Shown here piece by piece: positions 36,152-50,362 of a stretch of DNA of 64,000 nucleotides. The translations under genes were made by a program, and so were the position numbers. Numbering within the stretch: the stretch's first letter is position 1; the number at the start of each line of letters is the position of its first letter. This DNA is from Escherichia coli. GTDB taxonomy: Bacteria; Pseudomonadota; Gammaproteobacteria; Enterobacterales; Enterobacteriaceae. Below the pieces are notes generated by a model that saw only the letters and a list, made by a program, of their open reading frames with translations, searched no databases and had not been told where the DNA came from. The DNA is taken from the NCBI RefSeq assembly GCF_003991155.1, contig NZ_CP031294.1; one strand, given 5' to 3'.

Positions 36152-37710
36152 ATGAAAATGACAAGTATTCAACAACGTGCAGAGCTTCATCGCCAGATCT
36201 GGCAAATTGCTAACGATGTCAGGGGTTCAGTCGATGGATGGGATTTTAAGCAGTACGTTTTGGGCGCGCTTTTTTACCGTTTTATCAGCGAAAATTTTTC
36301 CAGTTATATTGAAGCCGGTGATGACAGTATCTGTTATGCGAAACTGGATGACAGCGTAATTACTGATGACATTAAAGACGATGCCATCAAAACTAAAGGC
36401 TACTTCATCTACCCCAGTCAGCTTTTCTGCAACGTAGCTGCGAAAGCAAATACTAATGACAGACTGAATGCAGATTTAAACAGCATCTTCGTTGCTATCG
36501 AAAGTTCTGCTTACGGTTATCCTTCAGAAGCTGACATCAAAGGTTTGTTTGCTGATTTCGATACCACCAGTAACCGCCTGGGTAACACCGTTAAAGATAA
36601 AAATGCCCGCTTGGCTGCGGTTCTGAAAGGGGTTGAAGGGCTAAAACTTGGTGACTTCCATGAACATCAGATTGACCTGTTCGGTGACGCCTATGAGTTC
36701 CTGATTTCTAACTATGCGGCGAATGCCGGTAAGTCCGGCGGCGAGTTCTTTACACCGCAGCACGTCTCTAAGCTGATTGCACAACTGGCTATGCACGGGC
36801 AGACCCACGTTAACAAAATCTACGACCCGGCAGCAGGCTCCGGTTCGCTGTTGTTGCAGGCGAAAAAACAGTTTGATGACCATATCATCGAAGAAGGTTT
36901 TTTTGGTCAGGAAATCAACCATACGACCTATAACCTGGCGCGTATGAACATGTTTTTGCACAACATCAACTACGACAAGTTTGATATCAAGCTGGGTAAT
37001 ACACTGACTGAGCCGCACTTCAGAGATGAAAAACCGTTTGATGCCATCGTTTCTAACCCGCCGTATTCGGTGAAATGGATTGGCAGCGATGACCCGACGC
37101 TGATTAACGATGAACGTTTTGCCCCGGCTGGCGTTCTGGCCCCCAAATCCAAAGCTGACTTTGCGTTTGTATTACATGCGCTGAACTATCTTTCGGCCAA
37201 AGGTCGCGCTGCGATTGTCTGCTTCCCAGGCATTTTTTACCGTGGCGGCGCGGAGCAGAAAATCCGTCAGTATCTGGTCGACAATAACTATGTCGAAACC
37301 GTGATTTCACTGGCACCGAATCTGTTCTTTGGCACCACTATTGCCGTCAATATTCTGGTGCTGTCTAAACATAAAACGGATACCAAAGTTCAGTTTATTG
37401 ATGCCAGCGAACTGTTCAAAAAAGAGACTAACAACAACATTCTGACCGATGCTCATATCGAACAGATTATGCAGGTATTTGCCAGCAAGGAAGATGTTGC
37501 TCATCTGGCGAAATCTGTTGCGTTTGAGACTGTTGTCGCGAATGACTATAACCTGTCGGTGAGCAGCTATGTGGAAGCGAAAGATACTCGCGAAATTATC
37601 GATATCGCTGAGCTGAATGCTGAGCTGAAAACCACGGTCAGCAAAATCGACCAGTTGCGTAAAGATATTGATGCGATTGTTGCTGAGATTGAAGGTAGCG
37701 AGGTACAGGC

Positions 37711-37714
<4 letters not shown>
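36152..37714 (+). CDS. hsdM: Type I restriction-modification methyltransferase subunit (Type IC, EcoR124 family)
   Basis: 520 aa; N-terminus [26 protein letters not shown] recalled as EcoR124-family HsdM; AdoMet motif [10 protein letters not shown]; NPPY catalytic motif. Confidence 0.95.
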
Positions 37715-38970
<1,256 letters not shown>

Positions 38971-39091: not shown

Positions 39092-42000
39092 ATGACTCAT
39101 CAGACACACACCATTGCTGAATCCAATAACTTTATCGTTCTTGATAAGTACATCAAAGCCGAGCAAACAGGCGACAGCTACCAGAGCGAATCGGACCTGG
39201 AACGTGAACTGATTCAGGATCTGCGGAATCAGGGCTATGAATTTATTTCCGTAAAATCTCAGTCGGCGATGCTGGCCAACGTTCGGGAACAGCTTCAGAG
39301 CCTCAATGGTGTGATGTTTAATGACAGCGAGTGGCGGCGCTTCACGGAGCAGTATCTGGACAACCCCAGCGATGGTATTCTGGATAAAACCCGTAAAATC
39401 CATATCGACTATATCTGCGACTTTATTTTTGACGACGGGCGACTTGAGAACATCTATTTGATAGATAAAAAGAATCTCATGCGCAATAAGGTGCAGATTA
39501 TCCAGCAGTTTGAACAGACGGGTTCTCATGCTAACCGTTATGACGTCACGATCCTGGTTAATGGTTTACCGCTGGTGCAAATCGAACTAAAAAAACGCGG
39601 GGTGGCGATTCGTGAGGCTTTCAACCAGATACATCGTTACAGTAAAGAGAGTTTTAACAGCGAAAATTCCCTGTTTAAGTATCTGCAACTGTTTGTCATT
39701 TCTAACGGCACCGATACCCGTTATTTTGCCAACACGACAAAGCGCGATAAAAACAGTTTTGACTTCACCATGAATTGGGCGAAATCAGACAACACGCTGA
39801 TTAAAGACCTCAAAGACTTTACCGCTACCTTTTTCCAGAAACATACTCTGCTGAATGTTCTGGTGAACTACAGCGTTTTTGACAGTAGTCAGACGCTACT
39901 GGTGATGCGACCGTACCAGATTGCCGCCACCGAGCGCATTCTGTGGAAAATTAAGAGTTCCTTTACAGCGAAGAACTGGTCAAAACCGGAAAGCGGTGGG
40001 TATATCTGGCATACTACCGGTTCTGGTAAAACCCTCACCAGCTTTAAAGCCGCGCGTCTGGCAACAGAGCTGGACTTTATTGATAAAGTCTTCTTTGTGG
40101 TCGACAGGAAAGACCTCGATTACCAGACCATGAAGGAATATCAGCGTTTTTCGCCAGACAGCGTCAACGGCTCGGAAAATACCGCAGGCCTTAAACGAAA
40201 TCTGGATAAGGACGATAACAAAATTATCGTCACTACTATTCAGAAACTCAATAACCTGATGAAAGCAGAAAGCGACCTGCCTGTATATAATCAGCAAGTG
40301 GTGTTTATATTTGATGAATGCCACCGCAGCCAGTTTGGAGAAGCGCAGAAAAACCTGAAGAAGAAATTCAAACGCTATTATCAGTTTGGTTTTACCGGCA
40401 CCCCTATTTTCCCGGAAAACGCTTTAGGCTCAGAAACGACCGCCAGCGTATTTGGTCGTGAATTGCATTCGTATGTAATTACCGATGCGATTCGTGATGA
40501 AAAAGTGCTCAAATTCAAGGTGGACTACAACGATGTGCGGCCACAGTTTAAATCTTTAGAGACAGAAACCGACGAGAAAAAACTGAGTGCGGCTGAAAAT
40601 CAGCAGGCATTTCTTCATCCCATGCGTATACAGGAAATTACGCAATATATTCTGAATAACTTCCGCCAGAAGACCCACCGTACTTTCCCAGGTTCCAAAG
40701 GCTTTAATGCCATGCTGGCAGTGAGTAGCGTGGATGCCGCGAAAGCCTATTACGCGACGTTTAAACGGTTACAAGAGGAAGCAGCTAATAAATCGGCTAC
40801 CTATAAACCGCTGCGTGTTGCAACAATCTTCTCCTTTGCCGCCAATGAAGAACAAAATGCCATTGGTGAAATTTCCGATGAAACTTTTGATACCAGCGCA
40901 ATGGACAGCAGTGCTAAAGAGTTTCTTGACGCTGCAATTCGTGAGTATAACAGCTATTTTAAAACTAACTTCAGCACCGACAGTAACGGTTTTCAGAACT
41001 ACTATCGTGATTTAGCCCAACGGGTTAAAAATCAGGATATCGATCTGTTAATTGTCGTTGGGATGTTTTTAACCGGCTTCGACGCTCCAACATTGAACAC
41101 GCTATTCGTCGATAAAAACTTGCGTTTTCACGGCCTGATGCAGGCATTCTCCCGTACCAACCGCATTTATGACGCTACTAAAACCTTCGGTAACATCGTC
41201 ACTTTTCGGGATCTGGAACGCTCAACCATTGATGCCATAACGCTGTTTGGTGATAAAAATACTAAAAATGTGGTGTTAGAAAAGAGTTATGCTGAGTATA
41301 TGGAAGGCTTTACAGATGCTGCCACTGGTGAAGCTAAACGCGGCTTTATGGCAGTAGTTTCAGAACTGGAACAACGGTTCCCTGACCCTGCCAGTATTGA
41401 AAGTGAAAAACAGAAGAAAGACTTCGTAAAACTGTTTGGTGAATACCTGCGTGCCGAGAACATCCTGCAAAACTATGATGAATTTGCCACGCTGAAAGCC
41501 CTGCAACAAATCGATCTTAGCGATCCTGTTGCGGTAGAAAAATTCAAAGCAGAACATTATGTGGATGATGAAAAGTTCGCTGAATTGCAAACAATTCGTC
41601 TCCCTGCTGAACGCAAGATTCAGGATTATCGTTCTGCCTATAACGATATTCGCGACTGGCAGCGCCGTGAGAAAGAAGCTGAGAAAAAAGAGAAATCAAC
41701 CACTGACTGGGATGACGTAGTTTTTGAGGTCGATTTGCTGAAGTCTCAGGAAATAAACCTGGATTATATCCTTGGACTGATTTTCGAACACAACAGACAA
41801 AATAAAGGCAAGGGCGAAATGATCGAAGAGGTCAAACGCTTAATTCGTTCAAGCCTGGGGAACCGGGCGAAAGAGGGCCTGGTGGTCGATTTTATTCAGC
41901 AAACGAACCTGGATGATTTACCAGACAAAGCCAGTATCATTGAGGCATTCTTTACGTTTGCTCAACGCGAACAGCAACGTGAAGCAGAAGCATTGATAAA

Positions 42001-42208
42001 AGAAGAAAATCTCAATGAAGAGGCGGCGAAACGCTATATTCGCACGTCTTTAAAACGCGAATACGCCACCGAAAATGGCACAGAATTAAACGAGACATTA
42101 CCAAAACTTAGTCCGTTAAACCCGCAATATAAAACGAAAAAACAGACCGTTTTCCAGAAAATCGTCACGTTTATTGAAAAGTTCAAAGGAGTAGGTGGGC
42201 AGATATAG
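39092..42208 (+). CDS. hsdR: Type I R-M restriction endonuclease/translocase subunit
   Basis: 1038 aa, same length as EcoR124I HsdR; SF2 helicase motifs (GSGKT, FDECH), N-terminal nuclease region. Confidence 0.95.
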
Positions 42209-42266: not shown

Positions 42267-42677
42267 TCAAACCATCGTAGGGATGTTTGTATCCACTTTG
42301 AACTCAGGTACACCAACGAACTCTTTAACCTTCATCTGGTAGCCGGTTCTGTCAGTTTTGATGACTTCCTGTTTGCCCTCTATAAACTGCTCACGCCACT
42401 CGTCGCGACGGGAAGCTGGCATGATCAGCAAAACGTTAGTCATATCCGTGACCTTCCTCCAGTACTCGGCCCAAATATTCTGTTTCACCCATTCCAGATC
42501 GACTTTATCCAGCCAAGCTCGATTCAAACGTGAGCGTTCTTCATCTGGTCGATGGTTTAGTCTCAGCAGGCGATTAATCATGTTGTGGCGTTCGTCGCCA
42601 TAAACGAAGTCGTGTACCTGATACATGAAGGCGATCTCTTTCTCGCACTCGGCCACGATTTCGTGGATGACATTCAT
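42267..42677 (-). CDS. hypothetical protein convergent with hsdR
   Basis: 136-aa ORF with AGGA RBS; no family recognised. Confidence 0.4.
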   Translation of the reverse strand: MNVIHEIVAECEKEIAFMYQVHDFVYGDERHNMINRLLRLNHRPDEERSRLNRAWLDKVDLEWVKQNIWAEYWRKVTDMTNVLLIMPASRRDEWREQFIEGKQEVIKTDRTGYQMKVKEFVGVPEFKVDTNIPTMV

Positions 42678-42681
42678 TTCC

Positions 42682-42712
42682 TGCCGATAGTCGATAGTCG
42701 ATAGTCGATAGC
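42682..42712. repeat. 7-bp tandem repeat (gatagtc/ctatcga x4) immediately upstream of RBS of 42267..42677
   Basis: ccgatagtcgatagtcgatagtcgatagc read directly. Confidence 0.85.
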
Positions 42713-42860
42713 AGCGTTTGAGTTGGGATCGTCGATGATGGAAAGGGCTGTATTCATAATAGCACCATTAAGAAGTGATTTGTTTAATGGTGCTATTATT
42801 TCAAAAATGAAAAGGTACTAAATAGAAATAAACAGGCAATCCTTCAAATAAAGGCATTGG

Positions 42861-43532
42861 CTAATCATACTTGGAGGTATTTATCACCAGAATTTTGTTT
42901 GTATAAATCTTCTTAATATCCCATGTGACATTACCGGAATACCATTGACCGTTATATACTTGGTTTCCAGTTGCACCTGTCATTGTTACATAGACAGGTC
43001 TGTCGTAATCGGTTCGTCTATAGTTATATACTCCAACCATAGCAGGCATTACCGCACATGGATACCCCATATCTATTGTAAATTGAGGGTCAGAAATAGT
43101 GATAAGTTTCGCATCAAGGGGCATCATCTCACCGTGATACACCATTGCGCCTGCGCTGTTATACATGGCAATGCCATAGCCAGAATGTGGTAACACCATA
43201 TCAGAAAAAGCATAAACTGTTATTGTTCCGGGGCTACCATTTACCTGATGCAATCTGAGAGCATTGTATCCGTTACTATGTTCATGAATAAACATCATGT
43301 TCGCCTTATTACTGCTTTTTATGAAAAAAAAACATGATTTGTTTGATGGGATTGATGTTTGAAAAACAGAACCTTTAGATGTAGACATTGTCCCTTTATT
43401 AATCAGATTTTGCGGAGTAAATTCAGGACTCATCCACAAACTTCCATCTGATTGAGTAATTGACATCCCGAACATAATTATCCCCAGTATGTGTATATGT
43501 AAGAACCAAGCCCCGTATATAAATTTGACCAA
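42861..43532 (-). CDS. Tyr/Asn/Gly-rich hypothetical protein (TTG start; possibly 3' part of a frameshifted gene)
   Basis: 223-aa ORF with TTG start, AT-rich; overlaps upstream 93-aa ORF in a different frame. Confidence 0.3.
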   Translation of the reverse strand: MVKFIYGAWFLHIHILGIIMFGMSITQSDGSLWMSPEFTPQNLINKGTMSTSKGSVFQTSIPSNKSCFFFIKSSNKANMMFIHEHSNGYNALRLHQVNGSPGTITVYAFSDMVLPHSGYGIAMYNSAGAMVYHGEMMPLDAKLITISDPQFTIDMGYPCAVMPAMVGVYNYRRTDYDRPVYVTMTGATGNQVYNGQWYSGNVTWDIKKIYTNKILVINTSKYD

Positions 43533-43759
43533 CTAACCGTATTTCCATTAATAGTAACATTTGGAACAGGTAAATTGATGTAGTTGTCGTTGTTAAGAGG
43601 CATTAATGACCACACGGCATGTAGTGATTTACCCGGTGGCGGATTAGAGTACGTCTTAGAGCCTGATGACGCCGTAAATCGATCAAGAAAAAAAATAGGT
43701 GTAAGGAAGCCAGTAACGTTAATTCCTTTATTGTTGTAAATCCCTGTACCGTATGCCAT
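43478..43759 (-). CDS. Tyr/Asn-rich hypothetical protein (possibly 5' part of same gene)
   Basis: 93 aa, ATG start with AAGGGTG RBS; similar composition to downstream ORF. Confidence 0.35.
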   Translation of the reverse strand: MAYGTGIYNNKGINVTGFLTPIFFLDRFTASSGSKTYSNPPPGKSLHAVWSLMPLNNDNYINLPVPNVTINGNTVSWSNLYTGLGSYIYTYWG

Positions 43760-43774
43760 TTTTCACCCTTGTTT

Positions 43775-43798
43775 TTATCAACACAATATGGCCGATCA
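43775..43798. terminator. hairpin (atatggccg-atcatg-cggccatat) at boundary of cargo block and phage early genes
   Basis: Perfect 9-bp inverted repeat; no clear T-tract, so terminator function uncertain. Confidence 0.4.
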
Positions 43799-43813
43799 TG
43801 CGGCCATATCAGA

Positions 43814-44383
43814 TCAATTAGAGCTTTGAAAGACTTTGTGTGGTTGTGTTGCGAGGTTATGTCGATGGCTTAACTCACGCATCATGTCTTCAAGGCGACT
43901 CTTTGTGTCGTCGAGTTGGTCGGCCATTGCTCCCAAAAGCTGACGAACGGCCATAGGATCATCGCTGTTTAGTGATGGCATTTTATAACCCGCCTGAGAA
44001 GACATAAGATTGAACGCAGACATCAACATCGTTAGAGAGGATTTAAGCCCAGCAATTTCACGATCTTTGCTGGCAATAATCGTCTCACTCTTGTTAGTGT
44101 CATCAGTTCGTTGAGTCTCGCTCACCATATCCAAAGTCGCCTGCAACTTATCAGCGCGCTCTTTTTCAGCAAGATAATGAACACCGAAATGATGTGCTAA
44201 AGCTACAACCTGAGTTGGCTCTTCAAAGGTGGACTCAAAATTAAGTGCTGTAACCACTCTCTCAAATATGGAAACGTCTTCTATTCCTCGAAGAATGGCT
44301 AACATTTTGACCAGTTCATTAGCATCCATTTCTTCGAATAAGGCGTTTTGTTCATCAGCTATCGCTTTGCATTTCTTGCACAT
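43814..44383 (-). CDS. hypothetical early protein
   Basis: 189 aa; conserved RBS context AGGAAAAACACATG; motif-A leader at 44401-44435. Confidence 0.5.
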   Translation of the reverse strand: MCKKCKAIADEQNALFEEMDANELVKMLAILRGIEDVSIFERVVTALNFESTFEEPTQVVALAHHFGVHYLAEKERADKLQATLDMVSETQRTDDTNKSETIIASKDREIAGLKSSLTMLMSAFNLMSSQAGYKMPSLNSDDPMAVRQLLGAMADQLDDTKSRLEDMMRELSHRHNLATQPHKVFQSSN

Positions 44384-44680
44384 GTGTTTTTCCTAATTCT
44401 TAAACAAGTTGTTTTCTTATTGGCTTTATTGTGATGTGGCATAAAAGGGGAGCAAGCTAAACGTAAAGGTGCAAACTCTCTATTTCGGTCAACGAAACAC
44501 AAGGGCCATTTGGCCCTTGTTATTAACACGTTGCTTTACGGACTAGCGGATAAGCGAAGTAGATCGCCAGACCAATGAGGACGCCATCAGAAATGACAGA
44601 CATCATCTTTCCCGTAAAATCCACCAACACCGCCATCACCAGAAGAGCAATGACGATCACAAGCCGGAATCTCTCAAGCA

Positions 44681-45106
44681 TTAGAGATAAGCATCCAGTG
44701 ACAACTGAAGCGCCTGGGCGATCTTTTTCAGTGCCTGCTCTTCTTGTTCACCAATGCCATCCTGATCGGCAATATCAAGGCACAGACACAGAACATCGAC
44801 CGCCTCTGGAGTACCCGCAATATCAGACAGCTCACGAATAGCCTGTGCATTAGCAGAACGAGGGGACGCTTCGTAACGAGCACGGATATTGGCGCTCATT
44901 TGGGCAATTTCACCAGCAAACGGAGAAAACGCAGGCAGAGCTGCAATTGTCTTCTCAAGAATGGCAATTTCTTTTGCGTCACATGTGCCGTCGGCATAGG
45001 AGATCATGTACGCGCCCCACACGGTGGCCTCAACCGCATCACGGTTCTCCATTTTTTTGACTTCGATAACTGCTTTACGAGTTTTCTTTTTGAAGAAACC
45101 TAACAT
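44681..45106 (-). CDS. hypothetical early protein (possible TerB-like fold)
   Basis: 141 aa; conserved RBS context; motif-A leader at 45128-45160; TerB assignment is weak pattern recognition only. Confidence 0.4.
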   Translation of the reverse strand: MLGFFKKKTRKAVIEVKKMENRDAVEATVWGAYMISYADGTCDAKEIAILEKTIAALPAFSPFAGEIAQMSANIRARYEASPRSANAQAIRELSDIAGTPEAVDVLCLCLDIADQDGIGEQEEQALKKIAQALQLSLDAYL

Positions 45107-45199
45107 GTGTTTTCCTTTTGTTATTTGTCAAAACAAGTTGTTTTATAGTTTCATAAATTGCTTACGCAAAGATGGTCAATGCATATGCACTAACAGCCG

Positions 45200-45388
45200 T
45201 CAGAAATAACCAAGTACCGAACCGACTGGAAAAACAAAAATCCCAACTACACGAGCCAAGGTCATGCCAGCCTGAAACTGGAGATCGCCAGAGCAAACAA
45301 GTTTTATAATGTTCGATACCCAACCGGCGGCCATGAGGGCAAGAATTGCCAGCCAAATTTTTCCAAAGTGATTTGAAAACCAGTTCAT
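45200..45388 (-). CDS. small membrane protein (two predicted TM helices)
   Basis: 62 aa, hydrophobic stretches IWLAILALMAAGWV and VVGIFVFPVGSVLGYF. Confidence 0.4.
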   Translation of the reverse strand: MNWFSNHFGKIWLAILALMAAGWVSNIIKLVCSGDLQFQAGMTLARVVGIFVFPVGSVLGYF

Positions 45389-45636
45389 ACAACCGCCTTA
45401 GTCACAGCATGATCCTGAGTAACCGGATGAACTTGAGGTATCGCATCCACCGTCATCCCATCCAGAGTGACAGGACGCTCTACTGGAGTGGTGGTAATTG
45501 TCGTCGACGGAGGTGTGGTGATGGATGAACCCGGCATCAAAAGGCTCTGGCCGGCTGGAACGGCTACCGTCGCCAGTGAAACTATAATGAGAACGTAGGC
45601 CATTGGTTTCAGCCTCTTTCTTTGAAAATTTTCCAT
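45385..45636 (-). CDS. small secreted protein candidate
   Basis: Signal-like MAYVLIIVSLATVAVPAG; 4-bp overlap with downstream gene; fully embedded in another frame of ORF 45398..45892. Confidence 0.3.
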   Translation of the reverse strand: MENFQRKRLKPMAYVLIIVSLATVAVPAGQSLLMPGSSITTPPSTTITTTPVERPVTLDGMTVDAIPQVHPVTQDHAVTKAVV

Positions 45637-45892
45637 TCGAACTGTCCTTGTTGTTTTTCTCCTTCACTAAAGGCCGTGTACTTTTCGCTTCGCGTGAAGA
45701 ACCAGAGGCAACAATCGCCCCCACGTTCGCAACAACTGACGCTTGATTATCTAAACGTTCATTCAGCAACCGAACGGTAGTCTCTAGTTCATCAAGACGT
45801 GACATAACACGACCGCTAAACAATTCGGCCAAAATTTGACGTAAAGAACGAGGACGTTTAGTTGCAGAAGTGAAATAGGTTTGACGTGCCAT
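45398..45892 (-). CDS. hypothetical protein (N-terminal part plausible, C-terminal low complexity)
   Basis: 164-aa ORF; C-terminal third Ser/Gly/His-rich; overlaps 45385..45636. Confidence 0.3.
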   Translation of the reverse strand: MARQTYFTSATKRPRSLRQILAELFSGRVMSRLDELETTVRLLNERLDNQASVVANVGAIVASGSSREAKSTRPLVKEKNNKDSSNGKFSKKEAETNGLRSHYSFTGDGSRSSRPEPFDAGFIHHHTSVDDNYHHSSRASCHSGWDDGGCDTSSSSGYSGSCCD

Positions 45893-46037
45893 GTGGACTC
45901 CATCCAGTGTCAGAAAGAGTTGCGGCTGGCGATTGCCAGCCGCCTTTCTCGTTCCATCCTGGAACTGTGTCTTACCGACACATTGTCATCCTGACGCTGA
46001 TAAGATACATGATTTAAAATGATAGGTAAACACTTAC

Positions 46038-46682
46038 TTACCACTTGTTATAAACAAAACCAATATCTTTCTTGTGAGGCATATCTGCTGCTGAAAAAGC
46101 TGCGATCTTCGCGAGTCGATCACATATTTCATTTTCACGATGCCCGGCGTGACCTTTAACCCACTTCCAGCGAACATTATGTCGACTTGCGGCCTCATCC
46201 AGACGTTTCCACAGATCAACATTCTTTACCGGTTTTTTATCAGAAGTCATCCATCCATTACGTTTCCACCATTTCATCCACTGTGTCATGCCGTTTTTCA
46301 GATACTGGCTATCAGAGTACAAAATAACGTTGCATGGATATTTCAAACGCTCCAGCCCGATAAGTGCGCCCATCATCTCCATGCGGTTATTGGTGGTGCT
46401 ATGAAAACCATCTGAGAACTCGCGTTCCTCACCACGATACTGGAGAACGATACCGTAACCGCCCGGGCCACCCGGATTTTTAAGGCAAGAGCCATCACTA
46501 AAGATTTTCACGGTTTTGAGCTGGGGATTGAACTCTACGACAGGCGTTGTGGGATTGGTGCGGGGAGAATTTTTGTTTTTGGCTTTTTTGCGAGTTTTTG
46601 CTTGCGATCGGGCTGGTGTCTTCGTCGTCATATAAACTCCTGAATCAAGCGCCGCGCCGATTTTTTCCTCGCGCGTGCGCAC
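46038..46682 (-). CDS. rnhA: ribonuclease H (RNase HI family)
   Basis: C-terminal region [12 protein letters not shown]...[16 protein letters not shown]...[26 protein letters not shown]...[16 protein letters not shown] matches RNase HI; basic N-terminal extension. Confidence 0.85.
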
Positions 46683-47214
46683 ACGCGTGCGTGTTAATAA
46701 TTATTAAAATAAACAAATTACTTCCCAGAACAGGTTTTTTATAAACCTGAACTGAACGAACGAAGTGAGTGAAGTTCACCTCGAACGAAGTGAGAGGTTG
46801 TCTTTTCAGGTAATACTCTCCCAGGGAGGTGAGTATAAAATTCCTCACCAACCTGGTCGTTTCATAACCTGAAAAGCTATGGTCTAAGTCTACTGCCAGC
46901 TTAGACTTGGGAAGTTATGGATGACAGCACCCCAGAACCGAGATCTTCCCACACTTTATGAAGGGGAGTACTGGATTCAACCTCTCGAAACACCCCAGAC
47001 TCGACAATCATAAAGTGACCCTTGTCTCTGCTCACTTTGGTTCCCCCTTCCCCGACACCTAAACGGCACCGGTTCTACGCTGGTAGTGAGCTTTTTTAAA
47101 CCTGACGCCAGTGACGCTTACCCCCACCCATCAGGTCGAGTCTCCAGTCTACGACTGGAAACTATCAGATCTTAGCACTTACAATTCACTTTATGAATAG
47201 TTTGTACTTATCTA

Positions 47215-47469
47215 TCATTTCGATTGATTATTTTTTCGACCATGTAGTTGAACATTCAAGGCAAACACCTCGTTGATCAACTCACCTAAAAGCTGTTCAA
47301 CAAGTTCGCGATGCTCCCCAAGATGCAAGCACTTAATTGCCCATTCGTACAAGTTGAAAGCCTGCTCACGATCTTTCATCATTTCACGAGCCTGGGCCAG
47401 AAAATCGCTCTCTACGAGCGCAACGACATTAGTCGGATATGACATGTTGGTTTCCTTAAAGTGGTTCAT
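47215..47469 (-). CDS. small hypothetical protein
   Basis: 84-aa ORF downstream of hairpin element copy 2. Confidence 0.4.
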   Translation of the reverse strand: MNHFKETNMSYPTNVVALVESDFLAQAREMMKDREQAFNLYEWAIKCLHLGEHRELVEQLLGELINEVFALNVQLHGRKNNQSK

Positions 47470-47631: not shown

Positions 47632-48225
47632 CTAAGCAGCCTTCTTTGATGGTCTTTTTTTCCTGATCACATTCGCAGGATCATACCCTCCCAGACTTTT
47701 CATGACGTCCAAAGGGATCTTGCTTATAGAGTGCCCAGCGTCCTGACAGAATCCTCGAAAAACAACGAGCATACTGCCACCGGGGTTGATGTTTACTTCT
47801 ACCTGACCCAAATTGACGTCAGGCTCGACAAACGCTACGCGGCCACCAGACAGAATAATCGTCTCATTCGCACACTCTGTTGCACGCTCATACCACTTTG
47901 TATCGAGGGATTGAGGAATTAGCATCACTGTTGTAACTCCGCGAGCCTGCTCACGTATAGCCGCATCAATCCAGGGGGAGATTTTGGAGTAGGGTGGATT
48001 GAGGAAGGCAATTGTACCTGGCTGTCCCCATTCAGATTTCAAAGCATCACGCTCAACGCCTATGAAATTAGGCAGCTTCGCATTGTCCTTGTTGCAGGCA
48101 ACGTCAACATCAAATGTCACTCCAAGATAACGTTGAATGGCAGAAAACAGCCAGTCAGGTGTTCTCCAGAGGTCACGAAGAGAGTTGTCGCGCTTTCGCT
48201 GTTTGATTTTTTCGGCTGCAATCAT
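47632..48225 (-). CDS. DNA N6-adenine methyltransferase (phage Dam-like, orphan)
   Basis: NPPY catalytic motif (AFLNPPYSKISPWIDAA); 197 aa; no adjacent restriction gene. Confidence 0.7.
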   Translation of the reverse strand: MIAAEKIKQRKRDNSLRDLWRTPDWLFSAIQRYLGVTFDVDVACNKDNAKLPNFIGVERDALKSEWGQPGTIAFLNPPYSKISPWIDAAIREQARGVTTVMLIPQSLDTKWYERATECANETIILSGGRVAFVEPDVNLGQVEVNINPGGSMLVVFRGFCQDAGHSISKIPLDVMKSLGGYDPANVIRKKRPSKKAA

Positions 48226-48408
48226 CTTCTTTCTCGATAGGTAAGTGATTACCTATTTTTGCATTTGATTTTATGTCTGACAATCAAATAAAACGCGCCA
48301 GAAATGCAAACGAGAAGCTCTCTGGCGCGTTTTTGTGGTGCTGGATATGTGATTGGCTTACCCAGCACTATAAAGCTCTCTATGGGCTTTATTTTCAGTA
48401 GGGGGACG

Positions 48409-49218
48409 TCATCCAATAGTGTACTCCGCTACAAACTTCTTAACGATCGGTGATTCTTCGTTCAATGTTAGATTTCCACCGTCTCTAACGGCAATTCCTG
48501 TCGCTGGAAATACAGCCATCATTTGCCCAGCCTGAGTTGACGCAGTGTTAAGCGGATACGGTTTTTCTGGATTGCTCATTAAAGCAATCTTAATACTATT
48601 ACTTGTAGCCTTCTTTTCTGTGAGAAGGTGTCTCATGGAAATTACCGTGTAAACACTAATATCTGGACCTCCGCTAAACCAATTAAGAAGGTTTAATATC
48701 TTATCCTTTGCTTTGACAGGCGCGTTTTCGTAAGCGTCTAAGAAAATATCTGTTTCTAAGCCTGCTTTATTGAAAAACGAATCATCTTTATCACTTAAAG
48801 TAAAACGAGGACCTCTTGCAGTACGCGCTTTTTTATTTGTGTTGCTATCATTTGACTGTTGAACTTTTAATTCATCATTAACATCAACACACTCTTCAAC
48901 CTCAATCAATCCCAATTGTTCTGGCTCGTTTTCGGCAGATTCAACACTTTCAGCGTTAATTACGTTTATAGGCTCATGCGCTAACTCCAACTCATTTAAA
49001 GCAGAGCTGAAATCACCTGCTTTTTCTTCATTGAACAGTTCTTCGGCAACATCATCAGAACTCATGGCTACGCCAGCATCGAGGCCGAGCAGCAGATCGT
49101 CAATATCATCAGTATTTTCAACCTGTGCGGCTTTTTTTACTGGCTCATCAAGTGATTGCAACATGGCTGTCAGCTCGTCCAGATCATCATTTGCCATTAC
49201 ATTTTCAACCGAACTCAT
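48409..49218 (-). CDS. hypothetical protein with highly acidic N-terminal half
   Basis: 269-aa ORF; Asp/Glu-rich first ~110 residues. Confidence 0.4.
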   Translation of the reverse strand: MSSVENVMANDDLDELTAMLQSLDEPVKKAAQVENTDDIDDLLLGLDAGVAMSSDDVAEELFNEEKAGDFSSALNELELAHEPINVINAESVESAENEPEQLGLIEVEECVDVNDELKVQQSNDSNTNKKARTARGPRFTLSDKDDSFFNKAGLETDIFLDAYENAPVKAKDKILNLLNWFSGGPDISVYTVISMRHLLTEKKATSNSIKIALMSNPEKPYPLNTASTQAGQMMAVFPATGIAVRDGGNLTLNEESPIVKKFVAEYTIG

Positions 49219-49378
49219 GTAAGTCTCCTTCTGCTTGGTTACATTTGCGTTTCGATAGCTACATTTTGACTAAACCTATCAGGCGGAAAAGTATTAAATA
49301 CAGGCAGGAAATGATTGAAAGGCGGCTGTTCTTTAAAAGAAAGCCTGCTTTAAACTCTCTTTAAAGCAGGCTTTTGTT

Positions 49379-49933
49379 TTACACAATTTCAGAGGGTAAT
49401 TTAAAAAGTCCGTACTTATTACGTGCCTTAAAGAAGCATTGCATCATTAAGTTTGTGTCATATAAGGCACTATGTGCTTTAGTATGATCGTACATAAAGC
49501 CAAGAGAGAAGGCCAACTCTTCAAGGCGGGGACGTTTACCGTCTTCTGTGGCCCACAGGGAAAATAGAGTGTCAATCAATGGGATGTCTGGAAGCGAAAA
49601 ACCGTAACTTTTCAGCTCATGCCTAATAAACGGAATATCGAACGCTTCGCCGTTGTGGGCTATCCAAATATCGGAAGAAGAGAGATACGAAGCGACAGAT
49701 GAAGCGTGATCGGCTAGTAACGGCTCGGCGGCTAAATCTTCAAGACTGATGCCGTGTACCGCTTGCGCTTTCGGATCGATACTGCGACGCGGGTTGAACC
49801 GCATTACAAAACTATCAACCATTGTCTGTGTCTCCAGTTCATAGCGGGTAATTGCGATTTCAATAATTTTATGACCAGCAAGGAAATCCAGTCCCGTAGA
49901 CTCGATATCGATGCCTGCAACAATCGTTGTCAT
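49379..49933 (-). CDS. DnaQ-like 3'-5' exonuclease (DEDD family)
   Basis: Exo I GIDIESTG, Exo II AHNGEAFD, Exo III HSALYD. Confidence 0.8.
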   Translation of the reverse strand: MTTIVAGIDIESTGLDFLAGHKIIEIAITRYELETQTMVDSFVMRFNPRRSIDPKAQAVHGISLEDLAAEPLLADHASSVASYLSSSDIWIAHNGEAFDIPFIRHELKSYGFSLPDIPLIDTLFSLWATEDGKRPRLEELAFSLGFMYDHTKAHSALYDTNLMMQCFFKARNKYGLFKLPSEIV

Positions 49934-49942
49934 CAGAACTCC

Positions 49943-50362
49943 TTACAACTTCTTAGCGCCCTTAAGTAGTGCGCTACGTACAAATTGAGCCGCTTTTTTC
50001 AAAGTTTCTTCACTGGTTTCACAGACAATCGGATCTTTCCACTTACCTGACGCAGTGTTGAGAATATTGATTTGGTTGCTATCCAGACAAACAGAGATAT
50101 AAAGCACCGTGCCACCAGCCAGCATCAAATGCATAGGAAACAGAGGCTTTTTACTGTCTTCACTGAACTGAGACATGGCGATGTTAATGGCTTCACCTAC
50201 TTGTGCGCCAACAAGCCCCTGCGCAGTTTCGAATATGGCACGAATAGCCAGACGAGCCTCTCGATCGGTCATAAGCGACCGGGAATGTTCGTCCGCTACA
50301 CGAATCAAAGCCTCTGTTGTTTTCCGATCCAGTTCATCTTCAAGCAACATTTCACTAAACAT
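49943..50362 (-). CDS. hypothetical protein
   Basis: 139-aa ORF in replication/nucleotide-metabolism operon. Confidence 0.4.
   Translation of the reverse strand: MFSEMLLEDELDRKTTEALIRVADEHSRSLMTDREARLAIRAIFETAQGLVGAQVGEAINIAMSQFSEDSKKPLFPMHLMLAGGTVLYISVCLDSNQINILNTASGKWKDPIVCETSEETLKKAAQFVRSALLKGAKKL

Follow-up and report, generated by a model that had tools for sequence, protein, structure and literature searches.

A two-gene operon at positions 42861-43759 of a 64,000-nucleotide stretch of Escherichia coli DNA (contig NZ_CP031294.1; the whole stretch is referred to as the window) encodes, with a probability that we put at roughly 80%, the exchangeable receptor-binding tip of the central tail fibre of a phage-plasmid. 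Both genes are located on the minus strand. The first, open reading frame 1 (ORF1), begins with ATG, occupies 43478-43759 including its TAA stop codon and codes for a small beta-rich subunit of 93 residues, the predicted adaptor. ORF2 (42861-43475 including the stop codon) has its true start at the ATG at 43475 and codes for the large subunit of 204 residues, the predicted receptor-binding protein. The locus is an ectopically placed instance of the recently recognised two-subunit tail-tip receptor-binding modules. In the proposed mechanism, both proteins would be translated from one mRNA, with the terminal Trp-Gly codons of ORF1 acting as the ribosome-binding site of ORF2. ORF1 would fold as a small beta-sandwich adaptor and ORF2 as a 'hand-like' receptor-binding protein, and their heterodimer would attach without covalent bonds to the beta-prism at the C-terminus of the J-like tail tip protein, a trimer. 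The complex would then bind an outer-membrane protein of E. coli as terminal, irreversible receptor, which would lead to DNA ejection. Virion location, attachment to the fibre tip and binding of an outer-membrane receptor have been established for relatives only (DEV gp54/gp55, phi24B gp54 and the Oekolampad protein) and are proposed for the window pair by analogy. We infer assembly on J, late expression and a 1:1 stoichiometry for this phage.

The proteins were assigned to two families of phage proteins, ORF1 to PHROG 557 (E 6.1e-29, residues 1-93) and ORF2 to PHROG 425 (E 2.2e-72, residues 1-204). Homologues of ORF1 are phi24B gp55, DEV gp55, a 101-residue protein of T1 and Bas07, and CYRAN_88 of phage Cyrano. 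Those of ORF2 are phi24B gp54, gp67 of Warwickvirus tonn with its Bas04 counterpart, the group of N15 gp23, T1 and Bas07_0025, and DEV gp54. An exhaustive profile search of a representative library retrieved 217 relatives of ORF2, mostly 200-235 residues long and matching from residue 1. Here and in 11 other loci the small gene was found directly upstream, on the same strand and with tight spacing. The pair follows a 422-450-residue Phage_Tail_Tip protein and precedes lom in Stx2 podophages, is convergent with gpJ in Warwickvirus tonn and Nonagvirus BRET, and lies directly 3' of J in Bas07, T1 and N15 (gp22/gp23).

This locus has been described as a 'bona fide RBP locus' (RBP, receptor-binding protein), the alleles of which track the terminal receptor (Maffei et al. 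2021, PMC8594841), and the link between allele and receptor was upheld by a genome-wide screen (2026 LBL preprint). The receptors are BtuB for Bas04, the large subunit of which is 98.5% identical to tonn gp67, and FhuA for Bas07. A study of FhuA treated J itself as the receptor-binding protein (PMC10373560). Matusiak et al. (2025, PMC12309495) dealt with this protein pair as well, as a small immunoglobulin-like and a 'hand-like' protein that were predicted to cap the tail spike. The closest alleles of ORF2 outside plasmids belong to the virulent Nonagvirus phages JenP1, JenP2 and BRET (83% identical), for which a literature search gave no receptor. Some recent RefSeq records call the ORF2 product (WP_000467662.1) 'cysteine peptidase family C39 domain-containing protein', a name without support from any Pfam or NCBIfam model. 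Sequence likewise backs none of the other database labels, namely 'hypothetical' and the PHROG names 'outer membrane protein' (557) and 'membrane associated protein' (425).

The two parts also occur joined in one protein. At least six ORF2 relatives are single chains of 315-323 residues (P0147, P0151, P0197, P0204, P0207 and P0221 in our numbering) that match from about residue 95-110 onwards. In their N-terminal domain they resemble ORF1 (GSGSRSY versus SSGSKTY, SQSGKTVTWS versus INGNTVSWS), and this domain is matched by the ORF1 profile (E 2.9e-5 for P0204); one of them lies at a similar locus, with a small reverse gene and tail-fibre genes behind it. Split and fused forms of one unit thus both occur naturally, the window lineage representing the stable split form. 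Another candidate fusion, P0216 (L016 6001-7014, 337 residues), joins a J-like fragment of FN3 and coiled-coil type to the C-terminal two-thirds of an ORF2-like protein. As this gene belongs to a deletion-scarred prophage, it was not used as evidence for a covalent fusion of J and RBP; it is probably a rearrangement product and not a functional fusion.

For structure prediction, ORF1 and ORF2 were concatenated and aligned with eight further pairs joined in the same way, with six natural fusions and with 69 ORF2-only relatives, and the alignment was checked for matching of the correct parts. The AlphaFold2 model reached a mean pLDDT (predicted local distance difference test) of 84 and a predicted template modelling (pTM) score of 0.83, with mostly more than 90 pLDDT in the ORF2 part. 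Its sole significant Foldseek match in the PDB was 9rpt chain C (E 4.9e-4, probability 1.0), which is phage Oekolampad's receptor-binding protein in complex with LptDE. This chain is a DUF6453/Rtp44 protein (E 1.6e-109). In the Pfam and NCBIfam scans of both ORFs, nothing usable was obtained save a match of ORF2 to DUF6453 (PF20051) over residues 77-138, which with 15.4 bits (E 0.012) missed the gathering cut-off of 25 bits but later turned out to be a true lead; ORF1 had no match to DUF6453. The profile of the Rtp44 family (alignment A4) matches members of the ORF2 family in a constant register of about +105 (7.6e-10 for P0157). The fold match of 9rpt chain C, the sub-threshold DUF6453 match and the constant register together imply that ORF1 would be the counterpart of the N-terminal third of a single-chain receptor-binding protein. 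The modelled pair thus shares the three-dimensional fold of DUF6453, but is made of two chains (93 + 204 residues) in place of the single chain of about 290-330 residues. The link between ORF2 and DUF6453 required the broader profile and the fold comparison, because direct sequence methods were too weak: pairwise BLASTP gave no significant match between Rtp44 and either ORF, hhalign reached only E 0.0028 at a probability of 11% when the small family alignments were compared with DUF6453, and a search of PDB sequences with the fused-alignment profile returned no match. Matches in BFVD comprised phage proteins of split and of fused size, some from Pseudomonas phages, among them a 95-residue 'tail fiber protein'. 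The motif [YF]-G-x-x-[IV]-x(4)-G-x(7,8)-[TM]-P occurs at residues 1-21 of ORF1 and at residues 1-21 and 99-119 of ORF2, and it is also present at the equivalent positions of DEV gp55 and gp54. This recurrence suggests repeated sub-domains.

The genome that carries the pair has a tail tip of the appropriate kind. The pair region is 100% identical to circular E. coli plasmids of about 105-115 kb, which are SSU5-like phage-plasmids because they carry metG, apbC, dnaE, thyA, dfrA51, a tape-measure gene and lambda-like tail genes. The same pair is present at 99.5% identity in phage Cyrano of strain LF82, which makes siphovirus particles. Plasmid pPK8276 is 100% identical over the pair region, and its positions 47710-50000 are 100% identical to positions 1-2291 of the window; therefore, the J-like tail-tip gene sits just left of the window. 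In pPK8276 the J gene (1575 residues) occupies 42577-47304 and the pair 89238-90136, a separation of about 43 kb; within the 64-kb window BLASTP detected no J-like protein. Up to its final residue, the C-terminus of pPK8276 J can be aligned with DEV gp56 and with the J proteins of tonn, Bas07, RTP and BRET (30-37% identity over 190-307 residues) and hence appears to be the type of tip that carries separate receptor-binding proteins. J is followed by the gene of a 1357-residue side fibre and then by lysis genes, with no receptor-binding locus directly after J in pPK8276. A six-frame profile scan of the window and the rest of the plasmid detected ORF1 and ORF2 as the only members of the superfamily. 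Three genes of 107, 230 and 83 residues behind the pPK8276 fibre gene were considered as a second module and rejected, since they had no profile match and their endolysin-like sequence and transmembrane segments identify a lysis cassette. The side tail fibre gene itself (L020 38410-42483; about 1357 residues) contains a long repeat region rich in Ala and Ser. In RefSeq, the annotation of this gene covers only 903 residues, and a spurious Ala/Asp-rich open reading frame (41258-41941) is placed on the opposite strand.

Comparison with the sister phage-plasmid pECOH89 delimited the pair as a cassette of 1,040 bp (42816-43855, minus strand), which belongs to the accessory part of a phage-plasmid of 110 kb. 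The empty site of pECOH89 (L022 10061-10201) consists of 121 bp with a terminator between the 189-residue gene and the DUF4942 gene. A divergent pair of 84 and 202 residues is located in pECOH89 between the fibre gene and the lysis genes (L021 6747-7609); it matches the family profiles with E 4.7e-18 and 2.4e-44 and has 26% identity to the window pair. The cassette thus occupies the DUF4942 site in one lineage and a position after the fibre gene in the other, while the C-terminal 764 residues of J are 99.2% identical between pECOH89 and the window lineage. In the plasmid collection, about 120 records carried the window-type allele and about 130 only a distant match of less than 60% identity, every sampled record of the latter band being at only 26-38% identity. 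One module per genome, at alternative sites and on an unchanged J tip, would look like the picture expected of an essential and exchangeable receptor-binding tip; this picture was drawn from two fully examined genomes and the counts in the plasmid collection. It looks like a swapping of receptor modules at alternative loci between the two lineages.

Several observations weigh against the assignment as a receptor-binding tip. Unlike in nearly all relatives, the pair is not found beside the gene of a J-like central tail fibre; it is embedded, remote from the tail operon, in a block of genes that run in the same direction and serve replication or accessory functions (RNase H, TerB, methylases). 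No promoter-like site was found near the pair. Neither was a gene for a superinfection-exclusion lipoprotein found beside it, though many relatives have one: BtuB-type loci contain directly upstream of the pair a gene for a lipoprotein of 89-91 residues with the lipobox LTGC (tonn gp65, L008 5451-5720; L006 117-392; L013 175-444), which probably serves in superinfection exclusion as Cor, Llp and Rtp45 do. The confidence of the structural model was low in the ORF1 part and in both N-terminal hairpins, and in sequence the connection to DEV gp54 and Rtp44, both proven receptor-binding proteins, is weak (19-20 bits). The case for receptor binding is built on the modelled fold and on synteny. Salmonella phage SSU5 is reported to use the core of the lipopolysaccharide, so that a protein receptor is only a proposal for the group. 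As for the position, T5 too encodes its receptor-binding protein apart from its tail genes, and the ectopic location is a positional, not a functional, feature of the window pair.

The same location is one of the reasons for considering the pair as a passenger or spare cassette that is not used by this phage, either a relic of recombination with a lytic phage (9g-like Nonagvirus, 83%) or a reserve module. The clean boundaries of the cassette and the virulent Nonagvirus phages as nearest non-plasmid relatives also fit this explanation, yet we regard it as unlikely. The pair is the sole module in a genome whose type of J tip needs one, its presence and absence are reciprocal to those of the pECOH89 module, both genes are intact and under selection, and the window-type pair is 99-100% conserved in more than 100 plasmids.

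Still less probable is a role in lysogenic conversion, in which the pair would be a 'moron' coding for membrane or outer-membrane proteins of the resident plasmid-prophage, for instance for superinfection exclusion or surface modification. Such a role is suggested by the PHROG names, by the position among non-structural genes in a low-GC cassette bounded by hairpins and, in Stx phages, by the adjoining lom gene. However, neither ORF1 nor ORF2 contains a signal peptide, a lipobox, a transmembrane or other hydrophobic segment (maximal Kyte-Doolittle values over 19 residues of 0.94 and 1.10), and a negligible membrane affinity was computed for homologues (Matusiak et al. 2025). Moreover, the homologues are virion components and the pair is missing from the list of genes that Cyrano expresses during lysogeny. 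A PADLOC scan of ORF1 and ORF2 gave no match to a defence model. An anti-phage defence system, considered since hsdR is nearby, was likewise not supported, given this lack of a PADLOC match and of an operon linkage to the neighbouring restriction-modification genes.

A listing of the longest open reading frames shows ORF2 as a TTG-initiated frame of 223 residues (42861-43532, minus strand), which overlaps the 93-residue frame by 55 nucleotides in a different frame. The sequence-only reading had raised from this listing the possibility of one gene split by a frameshift, next to that of two genes, and had left the function unknown. Both frames are indeed present at their coordinates, but the overlap is merely a mechanical upstream extension of ORF2. 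The full-length homologues share the Met encoded by the ATG at 43475 and RefSeq annotates two separate genes of 93 (WP_001348723.1) and 204 residues (WP_000467662.1); the 55-nucleotide overlap and the TTG start are therefore artefacts of listing the longest frame, and the 19-residue TTG extension is unconserved. At the junction (43473-43486, minus strand), TGG GGA TAA tt ATG is read directly from the sequence, within ...TAC TGG GGA TAA tt ATG TTC GGG ATG TCA..., so that the ATG of ORF2 follows the stop codon of ORF1 after 2 nucleotides. The start codon of ORF1 is likewise preceded by a Shine-Dalgarno sequence, AAGGGTG (43757-43771 together with the ATG, minus strand). The terminal Trp-Gly codons of ORF1 (TGG GGN) supply a Shine-Dalgarno sequence GGGG(A) for ORF2, and the arrangement TGGGG(N)-stop-(0-5 nucleotides)-ATG was also found in eight other loci, from which we infer a coupling of ribosomes from ORF1 to ORF2. 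The low GC content that had been noted is genuine yet modest, with 0.35-0.39 at the pair versus 0.45-0.49 in the flanks. Tyr, Asn and Gly make up 8.6, 12.9 and 10.8% of ORF1 and 6.9, 7.4 and 8.3% of ORF2.

The two genes are kept separate in very different phages. A stop codon, a short spacer and a separate ATG for ORF2 were present in 12 of 12 junctions compared, namely those of the window and 11 others from Stx podophages, Warwickvirus, Nonagvirus, Hanrivervirus, metagenomic contigs, pECOH89 and Pseudomonas phage DEV. Spacer length ranges from an overlap of the two codons, as in DEV and pECOH89, to 5 nucleotides. All full-length ORF2 homologues (49-100% identity, 203-216 residues) share the start Met and the beginning M-[YF]-G-x-S-I, and the ends that meet at the junction are conserved as GSYIYT[YF]WG at the C-terminus of ORF1 and M[YF]G[ML]SI at the N-terminus of ORF2. 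The genes are separate in RefSeq and in more than 200 homologues (27-100% identity), among them those of Stx podophages, T1-like and 9g-like siphophages and SSU5-like phage-plasmids. Between ORF2 and its homologue in Nonagvirus BRET, the rates of nonsynonymous (dN) and synonymous (dS) substitution were 0.105 and 1.66 (dN/dS about 0.06), and for ORF1 a dN of 0.156 was obtained at saturated dS; dS was saturated in most comparisons and dN/dS is numeric only for ORF2-BRET and ORF2-Stx. Judged from these substitutions, both genes are under purifying selection. At least six plasmids that were assembled independently have the same DNA over the pair, and a match to at least 80% of the pair region is contained in 149 E. 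coli records.

A single gene of about 297 residues interrupted by a frameshift or a sequencing indel is effectively refuted, even though there are single-chain relatives of 315-323 residues and the 311-residue DUF6453 family with the same fold, both of a length that agrees with the sum of 93 and 204 residues: both genes are under purifying selection and kept separate in homologues, all close and moderately distant ones examined having the stop codon, the spacer and an ATG with its own Shine-Dalgarno sequence, the start Met of ORF2 is shared, the DNA is identical across independent assemblies, and the DEV cistrons are each essential and were complemented separately. The alternative of two genes, for which the sequence-only reading had asked for separate homologues, is thus what was observed. 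The intuition that both frames belong together was sound, since they are always adjacent, have a common N-terminal motif and possess natural single-chain relatives. In place of an unknown function, a tail-tip receptor-binding pair can now be specifically proposed.

The surroundings of the cassette differ between plasmid lineages. The upstream 189-residue gene (43814-44383; PHROG 5508) has a different C-terminal end in the two lineages because its last 42 nucleotides or so are inside the cassette boundary. Between this gene and ORF1, within the cassette, lies a hairpin with an 11-bp stem, AUAUGGCCG...CGGCCAUAU (43784-43811, minus strand); with a minimum free energy of the region of -18.5 kcal/mol and a z-score of -2.1 its support is weak, and it may be an element for transcript processing or attenuation. 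A second hairpin (42757-42806) between ORF2 and the DUF4942 gene has a 16-bp stem (region minimum free energy -28.7 kcal/mol, z-score -5.2). It is conserved backbone that is also present in pECOH89 and hence lies outside the cassette.

The pair had been described as located next to hsdR. This is true, but the 136-residue remnant of a DUF4942 methylase intervenes. The window segment 36062-42295 with hsdM (36152-37714), hsdS (37711-38970) and hsdR (39092-42208) replaces 4.2 kb of the accessory backbone of pPK8276, which is near-identical otherwise, and cuts the DUF4942 methyltransferase gene to an N-terminal stub (42267-42677; PHROG 6263/16000). The hsdMSR block is absent from pPK8276, pECOH89 and Cyrano, all three of which retain this neighbourhood. 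The proximity of hsdR is thus incidental, the hsd genes being a separate insertion or replacement. The truncated DUF4942 gene has, immediately 5' of its start codon, 3.9 perfect tandem copies of the 7-bp unit CGATAGT (42685-42711). For identical plasmids, RefSeq records flag the RNase HI gene (46038-46682) as a 'frameshifted' pseudogene; the window shows an uninterrupted GTG-initiated frame of 214 residues. Two separate RNase H genes are present in a distant relative (L003).

If the assignment is right, the locus is the probable receptor-binding tip of a large and clinically relevant group of E. coli phage-plasmids, and predicts host-range genes as well as candidate surface receptors for screening. 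The SSU5-like phage-plasmids carry resistance genes, e.g. blaCTX-M-15 on pECOH89. A bolder proposal, which we offer tentatively and consider doubtful at present, is that SSU5-like phage-plasmids of E. coli set their terminal receptor by a free-standing, position-independent two-gene cassette that is swapped on an identical J tip, and that the allele in the window, for which the BamA-linked module of Stx phages is the nearest relative with a proposed receptor, targets an essential outer-membrane protein. An essential target, if true, would explain the lack of an identified receptor for these phage-plasmids, and the sequence of a free-standing cassette would be a marker for the host range of resistance carried by phage-plasmids. 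The locus clearly illustrates how the same receptor-binding fold is found in nature either split over two polypeptides, as here, or in one, as in DUF6453 and the fusions of about 315 residues. A module that left the tail operon while the J tip stayed constant is also relevant to the engineering of modular phage host range.

Among the receptor-linked alleles, the FhuA and BtuB types are the more distant ones. The loci of T1, N15 (gp22/gp23) and Bas07 (FhuA type) and those of tonn (gp66/gp67) and Bas04 (BtuB type) belong to the same PHROG families and have the same gene order as the window pair. Their ORF2 homologues are 27% (FhuA type) and 41% (BtuB type) identical, and these loci usually add a lipoprotein gene (Cor, or the 89-residue gp65 of tonn), whereas the window pair is without one. 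The DUF6453/Rtp44/Oekolampad protein, an LptD binder (9rpt chain C), is a single chain of 311-327 residues where the window has two. The identity is 11%, and the same receptor is not expected.

The Stx-phage loci are closer, with 61-63% identity for ORF2 and 63-66% for the ORF1 homologues. Like the window pair, gp55/gp54 of phi24B (Traversvirus) are two genes, with a gp54 of 204 residues and a small gene of 92-93 residues from the upstream start. The phi24B pair lies directly after the J-like needle gene gp56 and before lom, whereas in the phage-plasmid of the window, which is of siphovirus type, about 43 kb separate the pair from J. gp54 is present in the virion proteome of phi24B, an extra asymmetric density is seen at the needle tip, and BamA was proposed as receptor. 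The assignment of BamA is only proposed, and at an identity of about 62% the receptor of the window pair may differ.

Pseudomonas phage DEV (Litunavirus) is very distant in sequence. In contrast to the phage-plasmid it is a podovirus, infects P. aeruginosa, uses LptD as receptor and has the genes contiguous with the fibre gene. Its gp56 (J-like, 429 residues), gp55 (99 residues) and gp54 (223 residues) form a receptor-binding fibre; suppressor mutations in gp54 mark this protein as the LptD binder, and all three genes are essential (PMC12892993). In a single comparison, the broad ORF2 profile matched residues 1-129 of DEV gp54 with E 4e-8. Both systems combine a J-like fibre that ends in the same type of C-terminal tip with a small and a large protein, in DEV a 99-residue adaptor and a 223-residue receptor-binding protein, encoded by translationally coupled genes, and the N-terminal motif M-x-Y-G is common to both.

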